DNA of 64,000 nucleotides from NCBI GenBank assembly GCA_000146465.1, contig CP001948.1, one strand, 5' to 3'. The notes beneath the pieces are model-generated. The model was not told where the DNA came from. It ran no database searches and saw nothing but the letters and a program-made list of their open reading frames with translations. Shown piece after piece: positions 17,552-63,010 of the stretch (within the stretch, counting starts at the first letter, position 1; every line of letters starts with the position of its first letter). The position numbers were made by a program, and so were the translations under genes.

Positions 17552-18562
17552 TCATGACTTATTCAAGAGCCTGATGTACATTTCTATCATTTGCGATATT
17601 ATCAAAACAACATTACTTAATATTATAATAATCAGAACAACCTCGAACTTTTCAATACTGCTCCTATTTGTGTTTTCGTTGAGGATCTCTAGTATTCCGT
17701 TAATCACGTCACACCTCCTGTTCAGCAGGTCTGCCCTTGGCTTGATATCCAAATACCTCTTACATGTTTCATAGAGAGACGAAAATGCAGGGTAGTCCCA
17801 CACAAACTCAGGCTCATCAAGAATATTGGATCCAAGATTTAGATTGAACCTTAGTCTATGCAATTTACCTATCATCTTCAATATCTCCTTCTTGCTTTTG
17901 CTGACCTTTCCCTCCCTCTCGACCTCTTCAGGGAACTCCTTAACTGCATCGATCGTGTTGTCCACAAGATTCTCGAAGTAGTCCAGCTTCACACTCTTGG
18001 CTATTGCAATCGAAATCACCATCTTTGTAAAGTGATTTTCAGAGTTCAAGTATATTACATCGTTGATAATAAATGGATTATCCGTTATACCATATTTGAA
18101 GGACTCAATCTCCACCTCGCTCGGCTCATGTCCGTTTTCCTCATACTTCTCAACAAGCTTGACTATCATCGATTCCTGCATCTCAGACATTCCCCAACAC
18201 ACTACAACACCGTACTCGTAGAAGAAGCAGTCATGTCTTTCTCCACTGCCCTTGAAGTTCATCAGAGTGTACAGACATTCCCCAAAGTACATGGAGACTT
18301 TGTTGCATAGAGAGTTGCTCTTCAAATACTTGTACAGATTCTTGAGGTCGTATCCGTCTGCAGTACAATAGGCTGTTACTCTGAACAGCTTCGTGTCTGG
18401 GACCGTGTTTTCCTCTTTTGGCATCATGTCTGTTTCAATCTTCAGTGCATATGCATCCTTGAGGGCTCGAAGCTCTATCCTGGCCTGCTTCCTGCCTCCA
18501 GCATTTGGTTCTCTACTTATATCAGTCAAGTATACCTTCTGTTTGTTGTAGTCTTCGGCCAT
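17552..18562 (-). CDS. DUF155 / RMD1 (Sif2)-family protein with a C-terminal TM.
   Basis: Central motif FFYEYGVVVCWGMSE resembles the DUF155 core. C-terminal hydrophobic stretch VVLIIIILSNVVLIISQMI. Confidence 0.45.
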   Translation of the reverse strand: MAEDYNKQKVYLTDISREPNAGGRKQARIELRALKDAYALKIETDMMPKEENTVPDTKLFRVTAYCTADGYDLKNLYKYLKSNSLCNKVSMYFGECLYTLMNFKGSGERHDCFFYEYGVVVCWGMSEMQESMIVKLVEKYEENGHEPSEVEIESFKYGITDNPFIINDVIYLNSENHFTKMVISIAIAKSVKLDYFENLVDNTIDAVKEFPEEVEREGKVSKSKKEILKMIGKLHRLRFNLNLGSNILDEPEFVWDYPAFSSLYETCKRYLDIKPRADLLNRRCDVINGILEILNENTNRSSIEKFEVVLIIIILSNVVLIISQMIEMYIRLLNKS

Positions 18563-18636
18563 AAATGCTCAGGGATAAAATTTTGGGGTTAGAAATCGGT
18601 CTCCTTACTTCAAAAGGAGAAGAGACATAAACGGAT

Positions 18637-19482
18637 TTATTGATTGGAAAAATATTCACTCACCTCCTTCTTGAACTCAGGGGACCTCTTCCGGTTTCCC
18701 TGGGGCCTTGTAAAGTACTTGAAGAGCTCACTTCGCTTAAAAATCTTTTCGTCCTCAAACATCCTCAGATACTCCTGGATCTTTTTCTTCTCCTTTCCAT
18801 TCTCAACAATCTCCTCGGCAGAGCTTAAGAGAGCTTTCGTTGAAATCAGATTCCCTATGCCCTTGCATTTCCTAAGGCCACCATCAAACATTAGAACTTC
18901 TTTTCCGATACTTTCGTCGGAAAGTCCATGGCTTCGAAGTAGATTTACAATATCTTCCGATTTGTCCTCTCCAGACTCCATCAACCTTTTCATCTCGTCC
19001 TGGTACTTATCATCTTCTTCATCTCCAGGATTAAAATAGGCATCATCCCGTTCCAAGGAATTCCTCTCTACATCCTTGAGAATCATTCCATTTAGTTTGG
19101 AGCTTTTGACATCGGATATCTTTCCGCAAGCCAGGCATTCTAGAGATAACCCGCCATTGTTGATATAGAATGTCTCTGGGTTGTTGCAAAATGGACACAT
19201 AACATATGCATCGATGAAGTCATATATCAGGTCTTGAATCCTCGAGGATTCATATCTCCCGTTCACAGCATACCGTCCCTTTCCAATGTCTGTCCTAGTA
19301 GCCAGTTCATAACTCATAAACTTTAGAATGTACAAAGGCGGCCTCTTCAGAGAGGAGCTGATATCCTCCAGATTCACAATCACTGTTCTTGTGTTTCCAG
19401 CCTTTCCTTCCTGCTTTACAACTGCTCTAGGCATCTTGTACCTATAGTAAAAGTCATTATTTGTTCTATTTATGTCGATCAT
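18637..19482 (-). CDS. Translation initiation factor eIF5 (eIF2beta/eIF5 zinc-ribbon N-domain plus a partial W2 domain). Start set at the internal Met.
   Basis: MIDINRTNNDFYYRYKMPRAVVKQEGKAGNTRTVIVNLEDISSSLKRPP...CPFCNNPETFYI...CLACGK matches the eIF5 N-terminal domain. The longer ORF runs to 19740 and adds an 86-aa low-complexity extension. Confidence 0.75.
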   Translation of the reverse strand: MIDINRTNNDFYYRYKMPRAVVKQEGKAGNTRTVIVNLEDISSSLKRPPLYILKFMSYELATRTDIGKGRYAVNGRYESSRIQDLIYDFIDAYVMCPFCNNPETFYINNGGLSLECLACGKISDVKSSKLNGMILKDVERNSLERDDAYFNPGDEEDDKYQDEMKRLMESGEDKSEDIVNLLRSHGLSDESIGKEVLMFDGGLRKCKGIGNLISTKALLSSAEEIVENGKEKKKIQEYLRMFEDEKIFKRSELFKYFTRPQGNRKRSPEFKKEVSEYFSNQ

Positions 19483-19560
19483 GCCATAAATGGGAATGTG
19501 TATATTGGGGGATTTACCCATAAACACATGGCTTTGATAAAAAATTGCTAAGGATCCTCC

Positions 19561-21213
19561 ATGGGTAAGAGCAAAAGTACTGGAAGAACAAGGCTGGATA
19601 AGTATTATAATCTTGCAAAGGAAAAGGGCTACAGAGCAAGATCTGCATTCAAACTCCTTCAAATTAATAGGAAGTATGCATTCCTTGAGAAAGCACATGT
19701 GCTCATCGACCTGTGTGCAGCTCCGGGGTCGTGGTGCCAAGTTGCAGCTCAGGAAATGCCTCTAAGAAGGAAGATAGTTGCAGTTGATTTGGAGCCGATA
19801 AAGTTCATGGGGGATGTCGACACGATCACAGCAGACATAACCTCAGATGAGTGCAGGCTTAGACTACGGGAGATACTTGGAACACACAAGGCAGATGTTG
19901 TACTCCACGATGGAGCACCAAATGTGGGAACGTCATGGGAAAATGATGCATTTAATCAGAATCTCCTTGTATTGCATTCAGCCAGGCTCACAGCGGAGTT
20001 TCTAAAGAAGGGCGGTGTATTTGTTACAAAAGTGTTCCGATCCCAGGATTACTTTTCATTGCTGAATATATTGTCGCAGCTTTTTGAGACTGTTGAGACC
20101 TCGAAGCCGCTCAGCTCTAGAAGCCAAAGTGCAGAAATATTTCTTGTGTGCCTTGGGTTTATTGGAGAAGAGGAGGTAGACTACTCGATTCTGGATCCTT
20201 CTGCAGTCTTTACGGAAATGAAGGAGACAGGAGGGTATGAGGATTTCAACTTCCACAAGAAACTGAAGCTTACAGAGTTCCTGAAGGAGGAGAATCCCGA
20301 AATTTTGTCTGAGATGCTTTTAAAGTATTCGGAGATTGTAGTTGATATAGATGAAAAAGACATAGAGAAGATCTTGGAGCCTGAGTTTCTGTATCTGTTT
20401 AAGGATCTCCAATTACTAGGAAAGGGAGAAGTCAGAAAGATTCTAGCCAAGAGGAAGAAGATCATTCGGGCAGTGCGGAAAGGAGATGTTGACATTCCAG
20501 CACTGGACTTCCTTGGAAGAAATGAAGAAGAGGAGATTGAGATGAAAGAAAAGAGTGTTGAGGAGAAGATAGAGGAGATAGAGATGCTTCTTGAAAAGAA
20601 AAAAAAACAGTCCCGCCGTGAAGAGTGCAAGACAAAGAATGAACAACCAGCCGAGTGTTTTTTTAAGGACTCAGTGTTTGATAAGCTGAATATTATAAGT
20701 GATAATGAAGAGGAATTGGAAGAAAGTCCGGAGCAGGATATTGAAGTGAGCAGTTGTTCGGACAGTCTAGATCTCGATGAAGAAGAGCTTATGTGTATTG
20801 CAAAACTTAAGGAGGATCCCGAGGGGTTTGTGGAGGATACCATTGACAGATACATCCGTGATCCCAATGAAAAGCTTCCAAACTATCTTCGTGAGGACCA
20901 AGAAGCCTTTTTTTCAAGGCCTTCAAAAGCCGAGGAAAGAAGGCTCACAAAAAAGGAAAAAGAGGCACTTAGCAGACGTAAGACAAGGGCTGAGAGGAGA
21001 GCTGAAATGTTTATGAAAGATCTGGTAATAGATGATTCTGAAGAAGAGGGCAAGGTAGCAAAGAAGATTTATAAGTCATCCTTTAAGAAGACAAAGACTA
21101 AGCCGAGAGTTGTGTTCCCTAAGAAGGGAAGATGTGGAGTCCCGCGAGGGAAGGGGAGAGTTGTGATGCTGGATAGAAGGCTAAAGAAGGACAAAAGAAA
21201 AGGAAAGGCCTGA
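19561..21213 (+). CDS. SPB1: AdoMet-dependent rRNA 2'-O-methyltransferase SPB1 (FtsJ domain plus a charged Spb1 C-terminus).
   Basis: RSAFKLLQINRKYAFL...LIDLCAAPGSWCQVAA FtsJ SAM-binding motifs. Long K/E-rich C-terminal domain. Confidence 0.85.
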   Translation: MGKSKSTGRTRLDKYYNLAKEKGYRARSAFKLLQINRKYAFLEKAHVLIDLCAAPGSWCQVAAQEMPLRRKIVAVDLEPIKFMGDVDTITADITSDECRLRLREILGTHKADVVLHDGAPNVGTSWENDAFNQNLLVLHSARLTAEFLKKGGVFVTKVFRSQDYFSLLNILSQLFETVETSKPLSSRSQSAEIFLVCLGFIGEEEVDYSILDPSAVFTEMKETGGYEDFNFHKKLKLTEFLKEENPEILSEMLLKYSEIVVDIDEKDIEKILEPEFLYLFKDLQLLGKGEVRKILAKRKKIIRAVRKGDVDIPALDFLGRNEEEEIEMKEKSVEEKIEEIEMLLEKKKKQSRREECKTKNEQPAECFFKDSVFDKLNIISDNEEELEESPEQDIEVSSCSDSLDLDEEELMCIAKLKEDPEGFVEDTIDRYIRDPNEKLPNYLREDQEAFFSRPSKAEERRLTKKEKEALSRRKTRAERRAEMFMKDLVIDDSEEEGKVAKKIYKSSFKKTKTKPRVVFPKKGRCGVPRGKGRVVMLDRRLKKDKRKGKA

Positions 21214-32420: not shown

Positions 32421-32816
32421 TTGTTTTTATTTTTAGATACAAGAAATAACATGGGAAAGGCTTCAGGGCCCTGGACAAGCCGGATGAAGGATACCATGGC
32501 TATCTTCAAAAAAAATCAGAAAATATATTCTACAGGCGCCTTTGATCCGCTGATTCTAGATGCAGTGACTGGATTGAGGGAGATGGCCAGGATGGCCTAT
32601 GGGGATGAGTTACTCTATGTTGAGGCGAGGGGATGGGTGATCAGCTCTCTTTTCGGAGTAAATGACGTAGTTGTGATCTTAGTAAGCAGGGGACTAGATT
32701 CAAAGAAGCTGAAGCATATCTACGAGTCGTACCGTGTATGTGAAGCTTACAAAGACATTGGACTCATGGATATCCTTCTAAGGATGTATGGCAAAAAGGC
32801 AGGAGCAGGGAGATGA
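32421..32816 (+). CDS. Hypothetical small protein (about 120-131 aa). The start is probably the Met at 32451.
   Basis: ORF only. Possibly a longin/roadblock-like fold. Unassigned. Confidence 0.4.
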   Translation: MFLFLDTRNNMGKASGPWTSRMKDTMAIFKKNQKIYSTGAFDPLILDAVTGLREMARMAYGDELLYVEARGWVISSLFGVNDVVVILVSRGLDSKKLKHIYESYRVCEAYKDIGLMDILLRMYGKKAGAGR

Positions 32817-32882
32817 TGTATCCCAGTAGTGCCAGTGTTCTTTCAAAGGCTAATAAAAATTTTTAGCAAATGGCCCAGAGAA

Positions 32883-33186
32883 ATGGTAAGTCGGCTTTAG
32901 ACTGGTTAATTTGTAGAGTAAAGGTACAGCCAGCTTTGGAAAAAAGAACAAGAGGAACACGGAAATGTGTAGAAGATGCGGAAGACAGAGTTATCACAAG
33001 CAGAAGAATTCATGCTCATCATGCGGATATCCTACTCCGAAGATGAGAAACCCAGGGTCTATCAAGGCAAGACGTAGACGCACTGTCGGAACGGGCAGAA
33101 TGAGATACATGAAAAGAGAACTGAGGGCTGCAAAGAACGGACATAGGGGAAATCCAATATTGAGGCCCCTCTGGAGTGGAAATTAA
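32883..33186 (+). CDS. RPL37: 60S ribosomal protein L37e, spliced. Exon 1 is the ATG alone (32883-32885), the intron is 32886-32916, and exon 2 is 32917-33186.
   Basis: The ORF from 32965 encodes [22 protein letters not shown]...TGTGRMRY (the L37e zinc ribbon) but lacks the conserved N-terminus. Reading upstream in frame gives [16 protein letters not shown], which matches the L37e N-terminus MTKGTSSFGKRRNKTHT, and stops at a TAG. That TAG is the AG of a 3' splice site. An ATG immediately followed by GTAAGT lies 31 nt further upstream. Confidence 0.85.
32886..32916 (+). other. Spliceosomal intron (31 nt) of RPL37: GTAAGTCGGCTTTAGACTGGTTAATTTGTAG.
   Basis: Canonical 5' splice site GTAAGT directly after the start codon. 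Branch-like TTAAT lies a few nt before the terminal TAG. Removing it restores the conserved L37e N-terminus. Confidence 0.8.
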
Positions 33187-33235: not shown

Positions 33236-33952
33236 TTGGGCCTAGACCCTGAAATGAACTTGTTGTGGGCGGGATATGTTTTTGGGAAAATGATTACACA
33301 CGAGGTCGAGAGGGTCTTGGAAAGGCCAAGCGAAATGGAGCCATTAAAGACCATCTCCAATGGAATGTCGAGTTTACACCTTTACTTGCAAGAGACCGAG
33401 GGAGACGTGTATGAACCGGCTTTTTCCCAGCTTGTGCAAAGGCTCAAGAACATCCCGGATTTTGTTATGGAGCAGGGAGACAAGATCTATCGCATTGTTC
33501 CTTTTGAATCGATTGAGATAGATTCTCCTGGAGGAAAGAAAAATCATGGGAAGTTCCATGAGATAGCAAGCATGGGAAACGAGGTGGTCATGACATACAC
33601 AAGCAGTGGACGTGATGGCGAAGAGGGCATGTATACAACCATAACAGTTATCTTTACATCCTCTGATGGAGAAGAGAAAATAGAGAAGATTTACAGTGGA
33701 TGGTCGGAGTCCTGTCTTCTAAGGGTTTCGACACCAAAGCTCAAGGTTAAGCACAGGAAAAGAATTCTGTCCATGTATCTTGAGGATTTGGAGAGTAAGG
33801 ATCCAAAGGAGGAGGCCATTGGACACTGGATTGAGGGGGTTAATTCCGAAGGAAAAGGATTTAACAACGACGCCATTCTTAAAGAGGAGATGATGATATT
33901 CGAAGAGGCAGGAAGAAAGGACAGTGGGGACTCTGTTAAAAAAGCAGACTAG
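33236..33952 (+). CDS. Hypothetical protein (238 aa).
   Basis: ORF. No motif recognised. Confidence 0.45.
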   Translation: MGLDPEMNLLWAGYVFGKMITHEVERVLERPSEMEPLKTISNGMSSLHLYLQETEGDVYEPAFSQLVQRLKNIPDFVMEQGDKIYRIVPFESIEIDSPGGKKNHGKFHEIASMGNEVVMTYTSSGRDGEEGMYTTITVIFTSSDGEEKIEKIYSGWSESCLLRVSTPKLKVKHRKRILSMYLEDLESKDPKEEAIGHWIEGVNSEGKGFNNDAILKEEMMIFEEAGRKDSGDSVKKAD

Positions 33953-34026: not shown

Positions 34027-34097
34027 AGGGCCCTTAGTATAATGGTAGAACACTTGGCTTCGGACCAAATAGTCCGGGTTCGAATCCCGGAGGGCTC
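34027..34097 (+). tRNA. tRNA-Arg (anticodon TCG).
   Basis: Cloverleaf: acceptor GGGCCCT/AGGGCTC with one G-U pair. T-arm CCGGG-TTCGAAT-CCCGG. Anticodon loop CTTCGGA. The anticodon stem has one C-A mismatch. Followed by GTTTT. Confidence 0.7.
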
Positions 34098-34137
34098 GGT
34101 TTTATGCCATCCTTTTCAATCAGATGAAAACAATCCT

Positions 34138-34872
34138 TTATTTCTTTCTAATCTTGTTTTTTTCCCTCAGATAAAAAGCCATTTTCTCTCCAAAGCTTCT
34201 GTTTTCCCTCACCTTTAAAGCCTCCGCATCCCTGTTGTATCCCTGCTTCATCTCGAGGACTCTCTTGCTCGGCTCGGGGACTATAGTATCGAAGAGACCC
34301 AGGAAGTCATCAATAAATTCGGGGTTCTCAAGAAGAGATAGGCCTGCCTTCAGGAAAACCTGGCTTTCAAAGGAAGGAGAGTCTTCGATGTCTTGAGGAG
34401 CATAACTTACAAAGAAGATAGAGACATCGTATTTCTTTATGAACTCAAGATGCTTTTCCCCCAGGGCGCCAAATGTCCTATATCCAGGTATATTTCCAAG
34501 CAAGCATTTTTTGGTGTATTTCAGACCATAGTGTTTTGGAGGCAATGTCTTTCTAAACACATACATGCACGGGGTCCTAACTTTCAGCTGTCCCGTTAGG
34601 ATTAGACTCTCTTTTGGAACAGAGCCGAGAATGTAGCTCAAGCAGAAGTCTCTTTTGAGAGTGATTATTCCGCAAAGATAATCCAGACTGGGATGTCCTA
34701 CTAACTTCAATATGGACTGGTGGATGGACGGGAATTCTTCAGCACTTCTTTCAAAGTGTTTCTTAAACGGCTCAAGAAGCAAAGTCTTTTTGTCCAAAAG
34801 CCTCCTCTTTCGATTCACAAGGAAAAAGCAAAATGCAAGAGCCAAAGCCACAATAACTACGTCGTGCAGCAT
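34138..34872 (-). CDS. Hypothetical type II membrane protein (244 aa, N-terminal signal anchor).
   Basis: N-terminal hydrophobic VVIVALALAFCFFLV followed by basic residues. No confident family. Confidence 0.45.
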   Translation of the reverse strand: MLHDVVIVALALAFCFFLVNRKRRLLDKKTLLLEPFKKHFERSAEEFPSIHQSILKLVGHPSLDYLCGIITLKRDFCLSYILGSVPKESLILTGQLKVRTPCMYVFRKTLPPKHYGLKYTKKCLLGNIPGYRTFGALGEKHLEFIKKYDVSIFFVSYAPQDIEDSPSFESQVFLKAGLSLLENPEFIDDFLGLFDTIVPEPSKRVLEMKQGYNRDAEALKVRENRSFGEKMAFYLREKNKIRKK

Positions 34873-34948
34873 CGGGGCAACAATATATTACCCTAAAAAC
34901 CAACATCGGTTTGCAGAAGCAGATGGGTTCCTTTGGGGCCTATCTTGA

Positions 34949-35021
34949 ACCCTGTTAGCTCAATAGGTAGAGTGTTGGACTTTTAATCCAACGGTTACGG
35001 GTTCGAGTCCCGTGCAGGGTG
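34949..35021 (+). tRNA. tRNA-Lys (anticodon TTT).
   Basis: Acceptor ACCCTGT/GCAGGGT. D-arm GCTC-AATAGGTA-GAGT. Anticodon stem TTGGA/TCCAA with loop CTTTTAA. T-arm ACGGG-TTCGAGT-CCCGT. Followed by TTCTTTT. Confidence 0.85.
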
Positions 35022-35071
35022 TTCTTTTGCTCTTCAAAACATTTTTCGAAATAGAAAACATCTTTAATCTC

Positions 35072-35767
35072 CTACCGCAACAGGTATTTACAGTACTCGG
35101 CCAGCTCGACCATTTCCCTGCACCTCACTCCAAAAGCATCTTCCAGCTCATTCAGTCTCTTGCTCAAGTAGGAAACCTTTCTTTTCTCCTCTTCGTACAT
35201 CCCCTTAGCCTCTTCAACTTGCCCAACCAAAAACTCTATTCTTTCATTGTTTGCCTTCCGGAGAGACTCCATTTTGTCTTCACTTGCAAACAAATCCCTC
35301 TTCAACGCTTGAATGTAACTTTTCAGCCTGTATTCATTAGACTTTAACCTTTCTATCTCCTCATTCATGATGGTACTCTCCAAAAGAATCTTCTCCTTTT
35401 CGTTTCTTTCCAACGCATACGTAAGAGTTGCGTCGTAGTTCCTCAGCATTCTATTGCATTCCTCTTCTTTTTTTTTAAGATCCTCTATCATTGTCCTGCT
35501 GGAGGCAAGTTCGGAACAGGTCTTCTCATAGTCAGACCTCTTCAGAACAATGGTTTCGTTGTCGGGATTGGTAGTCCTTCTGCAGCCCTCTGTCTTTTCA
35601 TTCATATCTATTGAACTTAGAGGAACTGTGGATTCTTCAGCAGGAGCATGGGTACTTGAGGAGATGCTCATGACCAGGGAGCTCAGATTTGCAATGGAGT
35701 CTGAAAGATACTTCACAAACTTCGATCCCATGTGATGGGCCTTGGCAACAGTCCCTATTAAATCCAA
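35072..35767 (-). CDS. Hypothetical coiled-coil protein (231 aa).
   Basis: ORF. Extended heptad-like charged C-terminal half. Confidence 0.45.
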   Translation of the reverse strand: MDLIGTVAKAHHMGSKFVKYLSDSIANLSSLVMSISSSTHAPAEESTVPLSSIDMNEKTEGCRRTTNPDNETIVLKRSDYEKTCSELASSRTMIEDLKKKEEECNRMLRNYDATLTYALERNEKEKILLESTIMNEEIERLKSNEYRLKSYIQALKRDLFASEDKMESLRKANNERIEFLVGQVEEAKGMYEEEKRKVSYLSKRLNELEDAFGVRCREMVELAEYCKYLLR

Positions 35768-35782
35768 ATGTCCAAAAGAAAA

Positions 35783-35902
35783 AGTTACAGCACCCGGGAT
35801 TCCCGAGTGGTCTCCCGCCTCAGTACTATCCGGGCTCGCACAGGCTTAACTGCGGAGATCTGACGAGTTCCGGTGCTTTTCCGTGGATATGGCCGTAACT
35901 GT
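35783..35902 (-). rRNA. 5S ribosomal RNA (about 120 nt), a Pol III gene with a downstream oligo-T run.
   Basis: Reverse complement reads ...AGTTACGGCCATATCCACGGAAAAGCACCGGAACTCGTCAGATCTCCGCAGTTAAGCCTGTGCGAGCCCGGATAGTACTGAGGCGGGAGACCACTCGGGAATCCCGGGTGCTGTAACTTTTT. It matches the eukaryotic 5S consensus block by block: GCGGCCATA, GAAAGCACCG, CCGATCTC, AGTTAAGC, TAGTACT, GGGAGACC, GGGAATNCCNGGTGCTG. The terminal helix AGTTAC/GTAACT is present. End coordinates are plus or minus 3 nt. Confidence 0.85.
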
Positions 35903-36034
35903 CCCAAATCCTAATCAGAGTTAAATACTCTACTCCACAATCCTCATAGACACTCCACCGGCCAACACTACAAAATCCATCTCTATTCTTAGCAAATTTA
36001 ATATAGTAGAATAGAATAAGCCCACTTGCCCATT

Positions 36035-39000
36035 CTATATCTTTTCCTCGGAATCCACAGCTTTACTTTTCCCTATCTTTTTTCCCCCAAGCATCCCACC
36101 TATCAGAGGCTGCACAACAAATATCACAACAGTAGTCAATAATACAGAGATCAAAACTAATCCTACTTCAAACCCATTTGTCTCTACAAACTTGTATTTA
36201 CTCAGCCACCAGGACGTCCATCTTGGAAATAGATACACCGTCATCAGGAGACCCATGGTCACTAGAAGGGAAAGACAGGTAAAGCTTTTGAATAGTAAGT
36301 TGTCTCTTAACTCTTGTCTATGTGGAGAACAGTCGCTCAGATACAACCCGTTGAGGATATAGATAAATGTCATGGCAAAAAACACTAGCTCGGATGCAAT
36401 GGACTGGTCGTTCATGACAGGGCTAGACTCCCCGTATCGGGACAAGACCAGAAGGGTTAAGCTTTCAAATGCTATGGTCAGCCAGAACGGGATGAAATCC
36501 TTCTTTGATAAAGGAAATATATCCGGGCGCCTTGGATACAGTTTATCGGATGTGTTAAAACATGTCAGCATGTATGCAACAGGGACCGAGACAAACAGCT
36601 CTGTGTGCATTGTCTGCAAATCACTCAGAAAGTTTCTCTTGAAGAGAAGAAAAAGAAGCCCTACATAACCGATCACACAGGAAGAGACAACATATTTGAA
36701 TGTGGCAGTCGACGTCACAAACGCCGAGCGTCCCTCCTTTATCAGGTCCAGGACAGATCCTATGTCGGAGGAAGTGAAATTCGCTGCCAGGCTGGCTTCG
36801 TTCTGTGCTAGAGCCAGGCCGACATTAGCACTGCTAAGAGCTCCGCTATCGTTTGCTCCATCTCCACAAAACATTGTGATCTTTCCAATGGCCCTCAGAT
36901 TCTCTATCAGGGCCTTCTTTTGTCCAGGGTTGAAGCGTGCAAATATAGCTCCTTTCTCAAGAATAAACTGAAAGTAGTGAGTGTTTCGGAAGAAGTCAAA
37001 CTCCCTTCCTTCGCATGCAACAACAAACTCGTTGTTGGATACCCTGTCGTTTCCCCTGTAAAGACTCAACCTCACCTTATCGAAAGTAAATTCCTCCTCA
37101 TCTCCAACACAAAGCCAGTCGACATCAAAAATGGATTTTGCATTCTCCTCAATAACAGGAAATATCACCGGAACAAATCCTTCAACAATCTTACACTCTT
37201 TGCCCACCGATATGGCTGTTAGTATGTTGTCCCCTGTGCACATGATACTTCTAATGCCTGCCTCATTAAGCTCCTCAATAGTTCTTCTGGAATTCTCCTT
37301 GAGCTTGTTTGAAAACACTATGAGAGCAAGAAACATCATCTCAGACTCATCTGTAGCTCTATCAATGCTTTTGCTTATTTCTTTGTATGCCAATGATATC
37401 ACCCTGTATCCAGCCAAGGAATACCCCTTAACTTTCTCTTCATATTCCTTTGGGCTGCTCTTCAGAATCTTCTGGATCGACTCTGGAGATCCTTTTGTAA
37501 ATACATACCTCTTACTTCCATCGTCTACCACTACACTCATTCTTCTAATGTTCGAATCAAACTCGTAAGTCTTCATAATCACCGCATTGATCTTGTCTCC
37601 TTTTACTTCTTCAGTACAATTGTTTAAGCCATATCTGTTGACCTCGTCAGTATCAAGGACTACCGAGGAAAAGTCCTTGTCTTCTTCATAAGTGTTTGTG
37701 TCTCCAACAGCAAACTTGCTCCCATAGATCCGATCTTTCTGATAATACACCATTTCTTCACTGTCGTTGTACTCCTTCAGAATGGGCCCGTAAATCTTAC
37801 TATCCCCTCCAATAACTACACTCCGTGTGTTCTCATTCTGAACAAGTTTTGATGAAGAAAAAATAAACATCTTCAAGTCAAGAGTATCTCCAGAATACCT
37901 TCCATCCAACTCATACACTAGATGGCATGTGCTTAGCCCAATTCTGGTCAGGATGCTAACTTTCTCAACATCATCTACGGCCTCCTCGAGATCGTCGATG
38001 CAAAGAAGATCAAGACCCTCGCACGTCAGCGTTCCTGTCTTGTCAAAAACTGCTGTGTCCACTCTTCCGGCAAGATGAATCTTACTCAGATTGTTGCAGT
38101 AGATGTTCTTCTTGATCAGCTTTCTGTAGCATAGCTGAGCCCCAAGCTTCAGGTACGTTGGAAGAGCAGGATTTGCTAGTGTGAAAAACAGATCAAGATT
38201 ATATACAAGATTCATGGTCTTGTTGAAGCCCATAATGTTGAGCATATAGGCTATACCAATAGAAATAATAATTGCAATCCCGGTTATGCTGAAGATTATC
38301 ATTTCTGCCTCTCTTATAAATCGGTTTCGAGTAGGTCTTGAGTCAAGCATATTCTTTAGAATTTGCCCCCGTGCTGTCTGGAAACCCGTTCTAAGTACCA
38401 TTCCAATAGCAAAATTCTCTGGGATGTTTATAGACCCAACCTCCCCAGAGAGCCGAGGTTTATTCTTACCCGTAAGACTTCTAACCCTACAAAGATTTTC
38501 ATTTCTCAAGCTGTTGAATATCGGCATTGTGTTGATACTCTTCAAAACATCTGTTCCCGAGTATACTGTGGAAAGCTGCTCGGCATTCTTGTATATTGGA
38601 ACCGCCTCTCCCGTAAGGAGACACTCATTCGTTATAGCATCCCCAAGAATCACAAGAGCATCACAAGGAAATTCCTTGCACGGCTCAATATACATTATAT
38701 TTCCAGGATATATTTCTCGGCTGTCTACTTCCATAAATTTCCCTCCTCGAAGTATTCGGACCATTCTCTTCTTCATAAGCTTTTTCATATTGATCGAATG
38801 TAGAATCTCTTCCCAGTTTGTAAACACAAACGAATAGACCATAAGCACCCCCATCACCAATGCATAGCTGGTGTATTCAATGAACTTCCATACAAATAGG
38901 CATGTCACATTTGACAGAAATGTAATACTGAGTATATTCTTCAGAATTATGTTTGAAACACTGGGGATAGGGAGGTTTGTGATGTTCTTCCCATAGAATA

Positions 39001-39460
39001 TGTTTCTTTGTACGCCCTCTATCCTTTCGGTCTCCAGAGACTTTGAAACCTCTGTCCTGTAGAACTCTTCAAAATCCCCTGAAGGATGCTTCTGCTCTGG
39101 AGGAACAACAAATTTCCCTAAAACAACGTCATATATAAACCGGAAAAACTGAGAGTCTATCACACGAGCCTTTCCCCCCAATGTATATCTCCTAAGCGAG
39201 GGAATTCCGGCCGTATCGTAAAAAAGAACATCAACAAATTCTTCTTTTCCATTCTGTGATGTTATTATGGCGCAATCTGCATCCAAAAGGCTGCAAGGAG
39301 AGCTAAGAAGAAAATGCTTGACCCGGGGTAGATACCTACACAACATGTAGAGCCCTCCCAAAGTCAGCATGCAAAGAATGTTGTAAAGACGCACAGACAT
39401 TCTTCTTCTTCTTCCCTCAATACTTATAAACGGCCTTTCCTGCTTAATTCCCACAAACAT
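36035..39460 (-). CDS. P-type cation-transporting ATPase, P5 subfamily (Spf1/ATP13A-like).
   Basis: Phosphorylation site AVFDKTGTLT. TGDN. Hinge GDGANDSGAL. The P5-type TM4 motif ANPALPTYL. 1141 aa. Confidence 0.85.
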   Translation of the reverse strand: MFVGIKQERPFISIEGRRRRMSVRLYNILCMLTLGGLYMLCRYLPRVKHFLLSSPCSLLDADCAIITSQNGKEEFVDVLFYDTAGIPSLRRYTLGGKARVIDSQFFRFIYDVVLGKFVVPPEQKHPSGDFEEFYRTEVSKSLETERIEGVQRNIFYGKNITNLPIPSVSNIILKNILSITFLSNVTCLFVWKFIEYTSYALVMGVLMVYSFVFTNWEEILHSINMKKLMKKRMVRILRGGKFMEVDSREIYPGNIMYIEPCKEFPCDALVILGDAITNECLLTGEAVPIYKNAEQLSTVYSGTDVLKSINTMPIFNSLRNENLCRVRSLTGKNKPRLSGEVGSINIPENFAIGMVLRTGFQTARGQILKNMLDSRPTRNRFIREAEMIIFSITGIAIIISIGIAYMLNIMGFNKTMNLVYNLDLFFTLANPALPTYLKLGAQLCYRKLIKKNIYCNNLSKIHLAGRVDTAVFDKTGTLTCEGLDLLCIDDLEEAVDDVEKVSILTRIGLSTCHLVYELDGRYSGDTLDLKMFIFSSSKLVQNENTRSVVIGGDSKIYGPILKEYNDSEEMVYYQKDRIYGSKFAVGDTNTYEEDKDFSSVVLDTDEVNRYGLNNCTEEVKGDKINAVIMKTYEFDSNIRRMSVVVDDGSKRYVFTKGSPESIQKILKSSPKEYEEKVKGYSLAGYRVISLAYKEISKSIDRATDESEMMFLALIVFSNKLKENSRRTIEELNEAGIRSIMCTGDNILTAISVGKECKIVEGFVPVIFPVIEENAKSIFDVDWLCVGDEEEFTFDKVRLSLYRGNDRVSNNEFVVACEGREFDFFRNTHYFQFILEKGAIFARFNPGQKKALIENLRAIGKITMFCGDGANDSGALSSANVGLALAQNEASLAANFTSSDIGSVLDLIKEGRSAFVTSTATFKYVVSSCVIGYVGLLFLLFKRNFLSDLQTMHTELFVSVPVAYMLTCFNTSDKLYPRRPDIFPLSKKDFIPFWLTIAFESLTLLVLSRYGESSPVMNDQSIASELVFFAMTFIYILNGLYLSDCSPHRQELRDNLLFKSFTCLSLLVTMGLLMTVYLFPRWTSWWLSKYKFVETNGFEVGLVLISVLLTTVVIFVVQPLIGGMLGGKKIGKSKAVDSEEKI

Positions 39461-39741
39461 TCAGGGGCTTGCCCACCAGGCCGATTTTAGAATGATTATC
39501 TCCGGAACATTAAGGAGATTTCCAAAATCGTTATGTTCAATACCATTTATTGTGGAAAATTAAAATAACTACGCCAGTCTCAATGCACTGCCTGCAAAGG
39601 AGACATTCAAAGCACCCCTCGGAGCAAAATCGTCATCTCCATAAATTAATGAAGCACTCGATTCTTTTTTGTATGAATAAAAGTATTAACTGTTAATTGG
39701 GTAATGAATAAATAAAATTCAATTAAAAAATCCAAAGTAGG

Positions 39742-40545
39742 ATGACTGATGTAGATAGAACAACTAACATTTTTGATTTCACTGATGCCGTGCATAACAT
39801 ACTTAAACAGAGAGAAAAGCTGTTTGGAACTAGCAAAGTCCTTTTATTTGTGCTTTTTTCCTGCTCTTCAATCATGATATTTCAAGGAGAAAGCTATAGA
39901 AACTTCTGCTTGTCAATAATAGTTGGGTTATGCATGATAGCTTCCGACTCAAGAGTGCATGAAAGACTTCTAGGAATGAGCTCCGAGTATGGAGGGGTGC
40001 GTGGAGCAATAGGTAGCTTTCTAGGGAAGATTTTTCTCAACAAACTATTATTTTGCATTCTATGTTTTTTGGTTGCATTAACGATCAACATGTCTATGAT
40101 TCCAATTACTTGGATGCTTGCAGCCTCTGTAGGAATCTCCTTGCTTAAGAAGATCTTCACAGAGGACTTAGAAATAACAAACATGAGCAATATTCTTTTC
40201 CATTTGGGATTTTTGGCATTACTTGTCTTTTCCCTCAACAATCTCAAGAAATCCAAAATAGTCATATATTCAGTTTTCTTTAGCTTCTTTGGATCGACGA
40301 TTCTATGGATTACTCTCGAGGCGATTCTGAATGAAAACCTTGGGTTCAGCCGTGCGTGTAATGTGTTTTTCCGTGGGGAGTTTATGGACTTCATCGGAAT
40401 ATCGCAGCTGTATCCTTTTTTACTCTTGATGGCCATTGGAGTTTTTACCCAAGTAAGAATCAATACTTTAGTCTTTGCATACGGAAAAAAGCGGTTTGCC
40501 TCGATTATTGTTAAGCGAAGTGAAAATAAAGTGATAGAAGTCTGA
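39742..40545 (+). CDS. Hypothetical polytopic membrane protein (about 5-6 TM).
   Basis: Multiple hydrophobic helices. No confident family. Confidence 0.5.
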   Translation: MTDVDRTTNIFDFTDAVHNILKQREKLFGTSKVLLFVLFSCSSIMIFQGESYRNFCLSIIVGLCMIASDSRVHERLLGMSSEYGGVRGAIGSFLGKIFLNKLLFCILCFLVALTINMSMIPITWMLAASVGISLLKKIFTEDLEITNMSNILFHLGFLALLVFSLNNLKKSKIVIYSVFFSFFGSTILWITLEAILNENLGFSRACNVFFRGEFMDFIGISQLYPFLLLMAIGVFTQVRINTLVFAYGKKRFASIIVKRSENKVIEV

Positions 40546-40644
40546 GTTTTATTGGGCTTATGGATGTTAGTATTCTTGGGTATTTCTAGAAGTAGGGAAG
40601 TATTTAGTTAAACAATGGTTGGGCACCTATGGGAGGGCTTATGA

Positions 40645-40716
40645 GGGGAGTTAGCTCAGCGGTAGAGCGCTTGCTTAGCATGCAAGAGGTCATGGGTTCA
40701 ATCCCCATACTCTCCA
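40645..40716 (+). tRNA. tRNA-Ala (anticodon AGC).
   Basis: GGGGAGTTAGCTCAGCGGTAGAGCGCTTGCTTAGCATGCAAGAGGTCATGGGTTCAATCCCCATACTCTCCA. G3:U70 Ala identity pair. Anticodon loop TTAGCAT. T-loop TTCAATC. Followed by TTTT. Confidence 0.9.
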
Positions 40717-60202: not shown

Positions 60203-63010
60203 ATGTTTTACTTAAGTCGAGCTGTTGTGAACATGGATCTCTATATGAAAGTATTATGCAACTCGTCAGACATATACTTAGTGCAATCTTCGTCGATAGC
60301 TATTTATACAATTAAGCATGGAAAGCTAATATATGTAAGGAAGACAGAATTTTTTGATGTGATCAAGTCGGCAGTCATTATTGGAAACGAGCTTCTTGTA
60401 GTCTTCAACGGATACATTGTATTTCTGGACAGATTTCTTGATGAAAGGACCCGGTACAGACTTGGAAGAAGCTCCGTAGACTATAGACACGTTGGAGCAT
60501 ACATTGCATGTGGAAAATCCAGTATCTGTCTTACATCTTTTTTTGGGAACATGACTTTCTGTACCCTTGGAAGTGGCTTGGAGAGTCCTATCGAATACTC
60601 TGCTGACAAGAGTGTAATTATCGACTTCAAGAGCGTGGAAGGGACAGGACAGTACATTTCATTAGAAAAGAACCCAAAGGGAACATTTGCCAAGATTTAT
60701 GAGCATAGTCCGGAAATTATAGAAGTATTAAGGGAAATAAGTGTTCCTGGAGGATACATGATTGTTCCATTAAAAGATAGATTTGCAGTATTTTCAACGA
60801 ATAGGGTATTCCTTTTTAGAAGAAATGAAGAAGTTGAAATCTATAAGGTTTCGAAAGGACGAGTTGGAAGCTTAGACTTGGCCCTTGATGAGGGAAATGG
60901 AGAATGCAGATGCTCAGATACTTTGGAAGAGAAGATGTTTACATGTTATACGTCATATTGTGATGAAAAATGTTTGTTGACGTTGATTGTGGATGAAGAT
61001 GGAGAGCTTTTCAATCTTAATACCACCTATGGTCTAAAGATGGAACATGTAGGAAAGATCAATCCTTCAAAGGATATAGCAATCCATTCTTCTGGACTCT
61101 TAGTTTCAATAGGCTATAATTCCGATAACTGTATATATTATATAGAGAGAAAAGAGGGGAAAATTAGTCTTAAGCTGGTTGCCATGATTGAGACGATAAG
61201 AAGATTCAATACTTCTACAATGGTTTTCGATGGAGTATATCATACCTATGTCTCTGATGGAAAGTACATAGGAGAGATAGTTGAGAAAACACCTATTTCT
61301 TTTCGGAGCGAATTGAACCTTTTTGAAAATGGGAAGGAAAAGATAGTAAGAGGTTTGTTCAATTGTGGAGCGTTTGTATGTGCCCAATACGAAGATGAAG
61401 TCCATTGCCTCTACTTAGAAGGAGAAGAGTTAACAAGTATATATAAGTTTGTGTCTGATGACGAGATAATTGGATATTTCAGGTTGGGAAGGATTGACTT
61501 TTACATGTCTGGAGGGTTAGTTAGGGCATACGAGATGAATGGGGAAGGAGAGTTAGACACAAAGGAATATAAAATCGATTACACCTCATTTTCATCAAAC
61601 TCTCATTGTATATTTCTTGGACAGAGAAATAAAATAATCAAGCTAGGATCTGAGGGGCTAGAAACTATTGAAATAGAGTTTGCTATCAAAGAAATGGAAT
61701 CTGACGAGAGATATTTATTCATACTGACTGGAAAAAGAGTCCTTAGAGTATACAGTATAGATGGTAGGAAATTTGTATTTATCCAGTCGTTCCGTTTTGA
61801 TGTGATATTTCTGTCGGTGTTTGATGGATACCTATATACGATCGGATCGGATATATATAAGTTTCAAATAAAAGAGGATGGATCTCTCTCTCTTCCTATA
61901 AGAATGAAAGAGGCAGGAAGGCCCATAGGGAAGAAGGAAAGATTGATAATATTTGATTCGCAAGTTATGGATCTAAAGTACGAAGGAATTTTAAACATTG
62001 ATGGATGGAAGAGTATCTTTTCAAGAGATATGATATTGGCTTCAAATGAGCATGGGATAAAAGTTTATGAGTACAGGAAACATAAAGTAGTCCTTGTCGA
62101 TGAGATTAGCAAAGAAAAAGATTGTAAAATTTTGGGTAAGGAGCAGATGTATATCGATAACAACCTAGATGGATTTGTAATAAGAAGATTTAACGGATCT
62201 TCCGTAATAGAAGGACATGGCGAGGCCATTGGATTTTCCTCTTCTGAATACCAAATTGTTTCCATGCGCAGGATCATACCAGGTCTTGAAAAACCCGAAA
62301 GTAAATGCTTCTTAAAGATATACAAAGAAGGAAGTTTCATGTACGATTTTGAAACACCTTACAGGATTGATATAACTTACACAAGCAGAGGAGAAGTTTA
62401 TTGTAGTGAGGAAAACAGACTTTATTGCTATGAAGTAGGAGTGAAGTCATTGCTCAGAAAGTTTAAGTTAAAGTTTCCATCAAAAATAAGCGGAATATGC
62501 TCTGACAGGGACAAACTATTTGTCGGAACAGAAAAGGACTCTGTATTCATGGTAAAGGACAGAAGAATTGTTTGTAGAGATAAGTTTCCAAGACGAGTGG
62601 TAGCCTTGGAGAGAATGAATGATGGGAATTTAGTGGTTGGAGATTGGGCAGGAAATATAATTGTCATGGAGGTTAAGGACGATTCCTTAATCTCGGGAGC
62701 ATCAATATTCGTCAATGACATGGTTGTTCAATTTATTTCTCAGGACAAAGTCTTTGGAATATGCATGAGCGGAAAAGTAGTCGAGATAGTGGAGATTGGA
62801 GAGGAGTTGTTTGAGTTTCTTGAGACTATCGGGGAGAAGATAACTGAGGCCTTAAATAGGCCATTTTTTCAGGCTTTTAGGAGAAATAGATTTATCAACT
62901 CGGAGTACATCAAAGAGTTCAGTAAACTGAGTGAGCAGCAAATCAAGGAAGTACTGGAAAAAACGAATGTAGATATCGAAAAGATATTTGAAGTGGTTAA
63001 TGCAATATAA
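60203..63010 (+). CDS. Large beta-propeller protein of the CPSF-A / DDB1 / SF3B3(Rse1) family (935 aa). Subfamily unresolved.
   Basis: Long ORF rich in beta-strand repeats. C-terminal FRRNRFINSEYIKEFSKLSEQQIKEVLEKTNVDIEKIFEVV resembles the conserved CPSF_A C-terminal tail. Moderate support. Confidence 0.5.
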   Translation: MFYLSRAVVNMDLYMKVLCNSSDIYLVQSSSIAIYTIKHGKLIYVRKTEFFDVIKSAVIIGNELLVVFNGYIVFLDRFLDERTRYRLGRSSVDYRHVGAYIACGKSSICLTSFFGNMTFCTLGSGLESPIEYSADKSVIIDFKSVEGTGQYISLEKNPKGTFAKIYEHSPEIIEVLREISVPGGYMIVPLKDRFAVFSTNRVFLFRRNEEVEIYKVSKGRVGSLDLALDEGNGECRCSDTLEEKMFTCYTSYCDEKCLLTLIVDEDGELFNLNTTYGLKMEHVGKINPSKDIAIHSSGLLVSIGYNSDNCIYYIERKEGKISLKLVAMIETIRRFNTSTMVFDGVYHTYVSDGKYIGEIVEKTPISFRSELNLFENGKEKIVRGLFNCGAFVCAQYEDEVHCLYLEGEELTSIYKFVSDDEIIGYFRLGRIDFYMSGGLVRAYEMNGEGELDTKEYKIDYTSFSSNSHCIFLGQRNKIIKLGSEGLETIEIEFAIKEMESDERYLFILTGKRVLRVYSIDGRKFVFIQSFRFDVIFLSVFDGYLYTIGSDIYKFQIKEDGSLSLPIRMKEAGRPIGKKERLIIFDSQVMDLKYEGILNIDGWKSIFSRDMILASNEHGIKVYEYRKHKVVLVDEISKEKDCKILGKEQMYIDNNLDGFVIRRFNGSSVIEGHGEAIGFSSSEYQIVSMRRIIPGLEKPESKCFLKIYKEGSFMYDFETPYRIDITYTSRGEVYCSEENRLYCYEVGVKSLLRKFKLKFPSKISGICSDRDKLFVGTEKDSVFMVKDRRIVCRDKFPRRVVALERMNDGNLVVGDWAGNIIVMEVKDDSLISGASIFVNDMVVQFISQDKVFGICMSGKVVEIVEIGEELFEFLETIGEKITEALNRPFFQAFRRNRFINSEYIKEFSKLSEQQIKEVLEKTNVDIEKIFEVVNAI

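Follow-up and report, generated by a model that had tools for sequence, protein, structure and literature searches.

The RPL37 gene of the microsporidian Encephalitozoon intestinalis ATCC 50506, which encodes ribosomal protein eL37, raises a simple question: how is the conserved N-terminus of the protein translated when an in-frame stop codon separates it from any upstream ATG? We have examined the gene within a 64-kb stretch of chromosome VII (here called the window; all positions are those of the window unless another locus is named). Its neighbouring genes carry the tags Eint_071400 and Eint_071420. The answer, in which we have very high confidence, is a canonical U2-type GT-AG intron of 31 nucleotides (nt) located immediately after the start codon. 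This intron is not new. It is already included in the public E. intestinalis annotation and in a published class of introns.

Structure of the RPL37 gene

The gene lies on the plus strand. Exon 1 (32883-32885) is the initiator ATG alone, a layout shared with nine fetched orthologous loci and with a tenth locus (L013, below). It is followed by a spliceosomal intron of 31 nt in phase 0 (32886-32916), with orthologous introns at the same site in these loci, and by exon 2 (32917-33186), which includes codons 2-90 and the stop TAA (33184-33186) and matches ADM11904.1 exactly. In genomic letters, positions 32880-32930 read gaaATG|GTAAGTCGGCTTTAGACTGGTTAATTTGTAG|AGTAAAGGTACAGCCAGCTTTGG, where GTAAGTCGGCTTTAGACTGGTTAATTTGTAG is the complete intron.

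Joining the ATG to 32917-33186 gives 273 nt and a protein of 90 amino acids (aa) ending in WSGN*. If the intron is retained, the frame reads ATG GTA AGT CGG CTT TAG and the product is MVSRL*. The TAG (32914-32916) provides both the last three bases of the intron and the in-frame stop that closes the exon 2 frame upstream. Since there is no in-frame ATG between this TAG and Met18, codons 2-17 can be translated only after splicing. The use of an alternative 3' AG at 32917-32918 was rejected: the intron would be 33 nt long and would give ATG TAA.

The spliced product matches the Pfam family Ribosomal_L37e (PF01907) over residues 2-46 with 65.1 bits (E 6.1e-18; gathering cut-off 27.6 bits) and covers profile positions 1-45 of 53, including the N-terminal region. 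With the open reading frame (ORF) of 73 aa that starts at ATG 32965, the match begins at profile position 17 and scores 45.9 bits. The translation includes a four-cysteine zinc ribbon of the type CxxC...CxxC (C19-R-R-C22 and C34-S-S-C37), and these cysteines align with the eL37 chains of solved ribosomes. Residues 1-90 of 90 align with chain 7qep_O7 of the E. cuniculi ribosome (7QEP; E 8e-54). Alignments to the eL37 chains of 6RM3, 6ZU5 and 7QCA likewise begin at residue 1 or 2 of the protein. We take these structures to be the ribosomes of Vairimorpha necatrix, Paranosema locustae and Spraguea lophii, respectively; the 6ZU5 chain carries a P. locustae label in the sequence listing.

An exact look-up showed that the spliced 90-aa protein is identical to the deposited '60S ribosomal protein L37' of E. 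intestinalis, which has four accessions (ADM11904.1, KAL7345452.1, KAL7349361.1 and UTX45660.1) and is seen on four contigs. The same type of look-up showed that the unspliced 73-aa ORF is not deposited in the protein collection. In the telomere-to-telomere assembly of Encephalitozoon, introns were introduced into the annotations by hand (PMC10158259). A dopey-like protein of E. intestinalis, ADM11902.1, corresponds to the neighbouring 1551-aa ORF.

The original prediction, made from the nucleotide sequence, had placed a 31-nt intron directly after the RPL37 ATG, and this proves correct to the base. It had also noted an ATG followed by GTAAGT (32886-32891) further upstream, an upstream stop coinciding with the 3' splice AG, and an L37e N-terminus encoded in frame ahead of the shorter ORF. 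All three are borne out by the gene structure and by the Pfam match, which after splicing runs from profile position 1. Its description of the shorter frame as the 'annotated ORF' is misleading, because the public annotation holds the spliced 90-aa coding sequence.

Orthologous introns

Genomic DNA of L37 orthologues was fetched and the 5' ends were read. This yielded nine intron-bearing loci (L001 to L009) together with L013. The intron is 31 nt long in E. romaleae (L001; 3' end CTAATTTGTAG) and in two strains of E. cuniculi (L002 and L003; ATAATTTGTAG), 29 nt in two strains of E. hellem (L004 and L005; TTAATTTGTAG), 30 nt in both Ordospora colligata (L006; TTAATTTGTAG) and Vairimorpha ceranae (L007; TTAATTTTAG), and 20 and 19 nt, respectively, in Anncaliia algerae (L008) and Tubulinosema ratisbonensis (L009), both ending in TTAATTAG. 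L013, an Encephalitozoon-like relative (Logan run SRR21633403, contig SRR21633403_88324), has an intron of 31 nt ending in CTAACTTGTAG. The E. intestinalis intron, GTAAGT...TTAATTTGTAG, has the same 3' end as those of E. hellem and O. colligata.

In all 10 loci the intron (19-31 nt) lies directly after the ATG and begins with GTAAGT, has a TAAT or TAAC motif a few bases ahead of the AG and includes an in-frame stop. Its removal produces a full-length eL37 of 90-93 aa in the nine translated loci (L013 was read across the junction only). The interior and the length of the intron drift among loci while the splice signals remain constant.

Codons 2-17 (32917-32964, 16 codons), which are accessible only by splicing, were compared in nine distinct exon 2 sequences. 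Within Encephalitozoon and Ordospora there are 13 variable nucleotide sites, 11 of them at third positions, and the amino acid is altered in only two codons (K/R at 11 and T/M at 16). Across the nine sequences residue 2 is serine throughout, encoded by AGT or AGC in one group and by TCA in Anncaliia and Tubulinosema. This pattern points to clear purifying selection on codons 2-17.

Some public or automatic L37 models in these loci are truncated and start at an internal Met: those of O. colligata (75 aa; L006:1426-1728, GCA_052575955.1), V. ceranae (69 aa; L007:899-1210, GCA_000988165.1), A. algerae (67 aa; L008:909-1204, GCA_000385875.2) and L013 (73 aa; L013:~550-822, Logan SRR21633403). In each case ATG|GTAAGT...AG lies just upstream and splicing restores a protein of 90-93 aa. 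These truncated models are annotation errors resulting from a missed mini-intron.

Loci without the intron

A further locus, from a close relative (L012; Logan SRR29713748_4858, a 79-kb contig, L012:601-873), includes an L37 gene without an intron. Its eL37 is 78% identical to that of E. intestinalis, its GC content is approximately 54% over the fetched stretch and its gene order is that of the window (dopey-like gene, small ORF, L37, next gene). It reads ...GGGGTATAG ATG AGT AAG GGA ACA GCG AGC TTT GGA AAG, that is, ATG|AGTAAGGGA. This contiguous sequence is what splicing of the E. intestinalis mRNA is predicted to produce at the junction, and it provides indirect support, at the DNA level, for splicing. 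L012 represents a GC-rich Encephalitozoon/Ordospora-like microsporidian with a precise loss of the L37 intron.

L37 is also intronless at this site in two more distant microsporidians, Binucleata daphniae (L010:1001-1306) and Pancytospora philotis (L011:1001-1267), so that at least two further lineages have lost the intron. A dopey-like gene is still linked to L37 in V. ceranae and, on the opposite strand, in P. philotis.

Splice signals and proposed mechanism

The 5' splice site, GTAAGT (32886-32891, +), is invariant in all 10 intron-bearing loci. Together with the last base of the start codon it forms GGTAAGT (32885-32891), the exact complement of ACUUACC, the motif with which Encephalitozoon U1 small nuclear RNA (snRNA) binds the 5' splice site (PMC5499648). 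The branch-point motif TTAATTT (32906-32912, +) includes the hexamer TAATTT (32907-32912). This fits the consensus TAAYTT, shared by all 13 of the E. cuniculi introns accepted in PMC2483917, and is located 4 nt before the AG (32915-32916, +; within the TAG at 32914-32916). A TAAT or TAAC is kept near the 3' end in every intron-bearing orthologue. The branch adenosine is presumed to be 32909, 7 nt before the G of the 3' splice site.

On this basis, transcription would start just a few bases before ATG 32883 and after two promoter-like signals described below (AAATTT-like and CCC). U1 snRNA (ACUUACC) would pair with GGUAAGU at the boundary between exon 1 and the intron, and the U2 small nuclear ribonucleoprotein (snRNP), whose components would include the SF3a3 and SF3b3-like products of the window, would recognise the UUAAUUU branch site, with the branch adenosine approximately 7 nt from the 3' AG. 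Splicing would then join AUG to AGU AAA GGU... to give the 90-aa eL37, and the junction in a spliced cDNA would read ATG|AGTAAAGG (ATG|AGTAAAGGTACAGCC). An unspliced mRNA would give only MVSRL* from AUG 32883, leaving the N-terminal 16 residues out of reach.

Upstream region and start codon

Two signals precede the start codon, both on the plus strand: an AAATTT-like element, AATAAAAATTTTT (32852-32864), which is kept upstream of the L37 ATG in Encephalitozoon and Ordospora, and a CCC-like motif (32874-32876), 7 nt upstream of the ATG, which is presumably a transcription-start signal. Their function in E. intestinalis is suggested by the work of Peyretaillade et al. (PMC2803860), where AAATTT-like and CCC-like signals precede microsporidian ribosomal-protein genes and E. 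cuniculi 5' untranslated regions (UTRs) are shorter than 7 nt. The placement of the CCC motif would imply a very short RPL37 5' UTR. Additional file 3 of the same study lists L37 as 'AAAAAATTTTAGCAGATGGCCCAGAGAA (intron)' for E. cuniculi and 'AAGTATTTTTTTTATTTTTCACCCATAAA (intron)' for N. ceranae; the first string matches locus L003 and the second locus L007. These strings and the upstream signals independently mark ATG 32883 as the start codon. A GGG-like motif occupies the place of the CCC-like motif before the L37 ATG of L012.

The AAATTT-like signal is overlapped by an AATAAA (32852-32857; AAAAATTTTT) situated in the 66-nt intergenic spacer, 36 nt past the stop of the upstream gene Eint_071400 (which ends at 32816). 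A single 13-nt element (32852-32864) may therefore be both the poly(A) signal of the upstream gene and a promoter element of RPL37.

Strength of the assignment and alternative explanations

Several points weigh against the intron or limit what can be concluded from it. The first is that the splice signals are, by themselves, only weakly significant. We scanned both strands of the 64 kb for the composite signal GTAAGT-N(8-38)-TAAYTT-N(1-6)-AG. It occurs once, against 0.17 expected, which is only about six-fold over chance in the window, and at least one match was obtained in 14 of 100 shuffled sequences. What is decisive is the position of the signal and the frame, which restore 16 conserved codons, together with the conservation across species; it is the comparative data that settle that this is more than a chance match.

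The second point is an upstream ATG (32870-32872), 13 nt before the L37 start and out of frame with it. If transcribed, it would open a 6-codon upstream ORF, MAQRNE*, which after splicing ends just past the junction. It overlaps the CCC motif, as seen in the string ATGGCCC. Both E. intestinalis and E. cuniculi have this ATG, and E. romaleae lacks it (ATTGGCCC). Given the CCC signal and the very short 5' UTRs, it can be argued that it falls upstream of the transcript. It was rejected as the true start since it is out of frame, overlaps the CCC signal and is not conserved in E. romaleae.

Thirdly, we infer splicing in E. intestinalis, and its efficiency, from orthology. All previously annotated E. 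cuniculi introns have been confirmed as spliced by RNA sequencing (PMC3629993). The ribosomal-protein introns of that species include L37, and a homologous intron occurs in Octosporea bayeri (PMC2784321). However, the short introns of E. cuniculi are spliced inefficiently, 30 of 37 at less than 50% and 22 of 37 at less than 20% (PMC3629993), and most L37 transcripts may retain the intron.

This inefficiency leads to the alternative that fares best, which concerns why the intron has been kept. It may act as a throttle on eL37 output through inefficient splicing, possibly stage-dependent or autoregulated (that is, sensitive to eL37 itself). Unspliced transcripts would encode merely the 5-residue peptide MVSRL*, splicing of short introns in E. 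cuniculi is low and 11 of 37 junctions shift between time points (PMC3629993), and the position of the intron is unchanged between Encephalitozoon and genera as distant as Anncaliia and Tubulinosema, although these genomes are extremely compact. If true, the throttle would explain this retention across distant genera. On the other hand, splicing of ribosomal-protein genes was not found to play a strong compensatory or regulatory part (PMC3629993), L012, B. daphniae and P. philotis have lost the intron with no obvious consequence, and nothing is conserved within it beyond the splice signals. We therefore consider such a role unlikely.

Far less probable is that no splicing occurs, that eL37 is a 73-aa protein translated from ATG 32965 and that the coding stretch upstream is a decaying relic. 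The frame 32965-33186 is indeed intact and still matches L37e, and shortened models of this kind are found in public annotations (those of O. colligata, V. ceranae and A. algerae). However, all of these have ATG|GTAAGT...AG just upstream, as would be expected of missed introns. The purifying selection on the 16 upstream codons, with most changes at third positions, argues against a relic. So do splice signals that are invariant in 10 loci whose intron interiors drift, the intronless L012, which encodes the same N-terminus contiguously, and the splicing of all annotated E. cuniculi introns observed by RNA sequencing (PMC3629993).

Finally, an assembly or sequencing artefact, or a pseudogene with a 31-nt insertion in an intronless L37, has nothing in its favour beyond the interrupted reading frame and is already refuted: the identical spliced product recurs under four E. 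intestinalis accessions and on four contigs, and eight other species or strains have an orthologous interruption that carries canonical splice signals.

Comparison with known introns

The closest relative of the RPL37 intron is that of E. cuniculi RPL37 (CAD25678.1/NP_586074.1, AL590447.1), which occupies the same gene in phase 0 after the ATG and is also 31 nt long. The two introns are identical at 28 of 31 bases, including GTAAGT and TAATTTGTAG. Positions 19-21, just 5' of TAAT, are GGT in E. intestinalis and CAA in E. cuniculi. The AAATTT and CCC signals and the synteny (dopey-like gene, small ORF, L37) are shared, and the eL37 proteins are approximately 92% identical. Proof at the transcript level concerns the E. 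cuniculi intron only. The L37 intron of E. cuniculi was one of the ribosomal-protein introns originally annotated by Katinka et al. (2001; cited in PMC2784321 and PMC6349667). The E. intestinalis intron is in positional orthology with this experimentally validated intron (PMC3629993, PMC2784321, PMC2803860).

Very short introns after the start codon of ribosomal-protein genes had been put forward as a hallmark of microsporidian and other highly reduced genomes, and they are indeed typical of the E. cuniculi class (PMC6349667, PMC2784321). Members of the wider microsporidian class (L19, L27a, L37a, L37, L39, S26 and others in E. cuniculi, O. bayeri and N. ceranae) are, like the RPL37 intron, short (22-76 nt in E. 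cuniculi), of the GT-AG type and with a strict GTAAGT (PMC3629993, PMC2483917, PMC2784321, PMC6349667). They have TAAYTT close to the AG, are located at or just after the start codon and cause a stop or a frameshift if retained. The branch heptamer is TTAATTT here instead of the commonest CTAAYTT (9 of 13 E. cuniculi introns); otherwise there is no material difference from the class. Judged by its GT-AG ends, branch motif, frame and orthology, the RPL37 intron is a typical short, 5'-biased microsporidian ribosomal-protein intron.

Yeast ribosomal-protein introns are about ten times longer, are efficiently spliced and use the branch sequence UACUAAC. Unlike these, the RPL37 intron of E. intestinalis is only 31 nt long, with approximately 7 nt from branch to AG, and is served by a heavily reduced spliceosome. 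The 5'-proximal introns of Saccharomyces cerevisiae and of cryptomonad nucleomorphs are likewise enriched in ribosomal-protein genes, at or beside the start codon (PMC2784321), and also have strong consensus splice signals in an intron-poor genome (PMC2784321; for the branch consensus, PMC2483917).

Spliceosomal genes and other candidate introns in the window

Two genes of the window, both on the plus strand and both acting in trans, concern the splicing machinery. The first (1687-2817) encodes a homologue of SF3a subunit 3 (Prp9), a component of the U2 snRNP (Pfam SF3a60_Prp9_C, E 1.2e-20). Its cluster at 90% identity includes a 367-aa form, ADM11873.1, that bears the annotation 'splicing factor 3a subunit 3', and the exact 376-aa ORF is deposited as a 'DUF3449 domain-containing protein' (KAL7349330.1).

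The second (60203-63010; Eint_071640, 935 aa) encodes a beta-propeller protein of the CPSF_A/SF3b3/DDB1 family. Its match to Pfam CPSF_A is borderline (26.7 bits, just below the 27-bit cut-off) and a phmmer search of the PDB sequences gave no match. The CPSF_A domain family is common to SF3b3/Rse1, CPSF160 and DDB1. In PMC10158259 (Table 1), structural homology (TM 0.82) identifies GPK93_07g12500 as 'Splicing factor 3b subunit 3', and CPSF1 and DDB1 are assigned to different chromosomes. When genes are counted in steps of 10 starting at GPK93_07g12330 (39742-40545), 07g12500 falls on 60203-63010. The same count places 07g12140 (Spb1) on 19561-21213, which carries FtsJ and Spb1 domains. From this consistent count we infer that ORF 60203-63010 is GPK93_07g12500. 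On the borderline CPSF_A match and the published structural homology, the gene probably encodes SF3b subunit 3.

The original prediction had cited these two genes, an SF3a subunit 3 homologue and a possible SF3B3-family gene, as signs that the spliceosome is retained. The former is confirmed by its domain and by its annotated cluster member and the latter holds with its borderline domain score and published structural assignment, so that spliceosomal components are indeed encoded in the window (an SF3a60/Prp9 domain and, borderline by sequence, SF3b3). No snRNA gene was found in the window with Rfam, either at the gathering score or at E values up to 0.5.

RPL37 had also been described as having the only intron evident in the window, and this stands. 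With approximately 37 introns per genome of 2.3-2.9 Mb, about one would be expected per 64 kb. Neither a strict scan (GTAAGT or GTARGW, with YTAAY and AG) nor a relaxed one (GT followed by at least three of the four bases AAGT, with TAAYT and AG) gave another credible candidate. Each of the other hits lies antisense to a gene, between genes on the wrong strand, or within a long ORF from which it could not be removed without breaking a domain or the frame. Among those rejected are 17763-17689 (-), which lies inside DUF155, 61346-61437 (92 nt), and 33795-33851 (57 nt), which is in frame, has no stop and has a weak 5' site. A second copy of ATGGTAAGT at 42224-42232 is a chance match within an 845-aa ORF (40840-43377), and a scan downstream of it picked up no branch motif with a nearby AG. 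This ORF has no Pfam match and its exact start is not in the protein collection.

Other features of the window

Between the protein genes, Rfam identifies a cluster of small RNA genes (34028-40716) composed of one 5S rRNA (35782-35900, -) and three tRNAs, all on the plus strand: tRNA-Arg(TCG) at 34028-34098, tRNA-Lys(TTT) at 34949-35021 and tRNA-Ala(AGC) at 40645-40716.

The longest ORF differs from the deposited model in two cases, SF3a3 (376 against 367 aa) and Eint_071400 (32451-32816; 121 against 110 aa annotated). These differences arise because start codons have been reassigned in the public annotations. In a more recent annotation, Eint_071400 is called 'vesicle trafficking protein Sec22B'.

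An apparent 1-kb gap (18562-19561) was considered as an empty region or a split gene, and both were rejected: it holds a minus-strand ORF extending from 18637 to approximately 19470. From its sequence (MIDINRTNNDFYYRYKMP...CPFCNNPETF...), this gene (18637-19470) looks like a translation factor of the eIF5/eIF2-beta type. The mechanically predicted ORF reaches 19740, running into the beginning of the Spb1 methyltransferase gene on the opposite strand (19561-21213).

Implications

RPL37 illustrates clearly how genes of this type are cut short when gene calling is based on ORFs. The L37 models of Ordospora colligata, Vairimorpha ceranae and Anncaliia algerae could be corrected on the same basis. 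The precise loss of the intron in L012 is a natural experiment, if a small one, on how introns are lost from reduced genomes.

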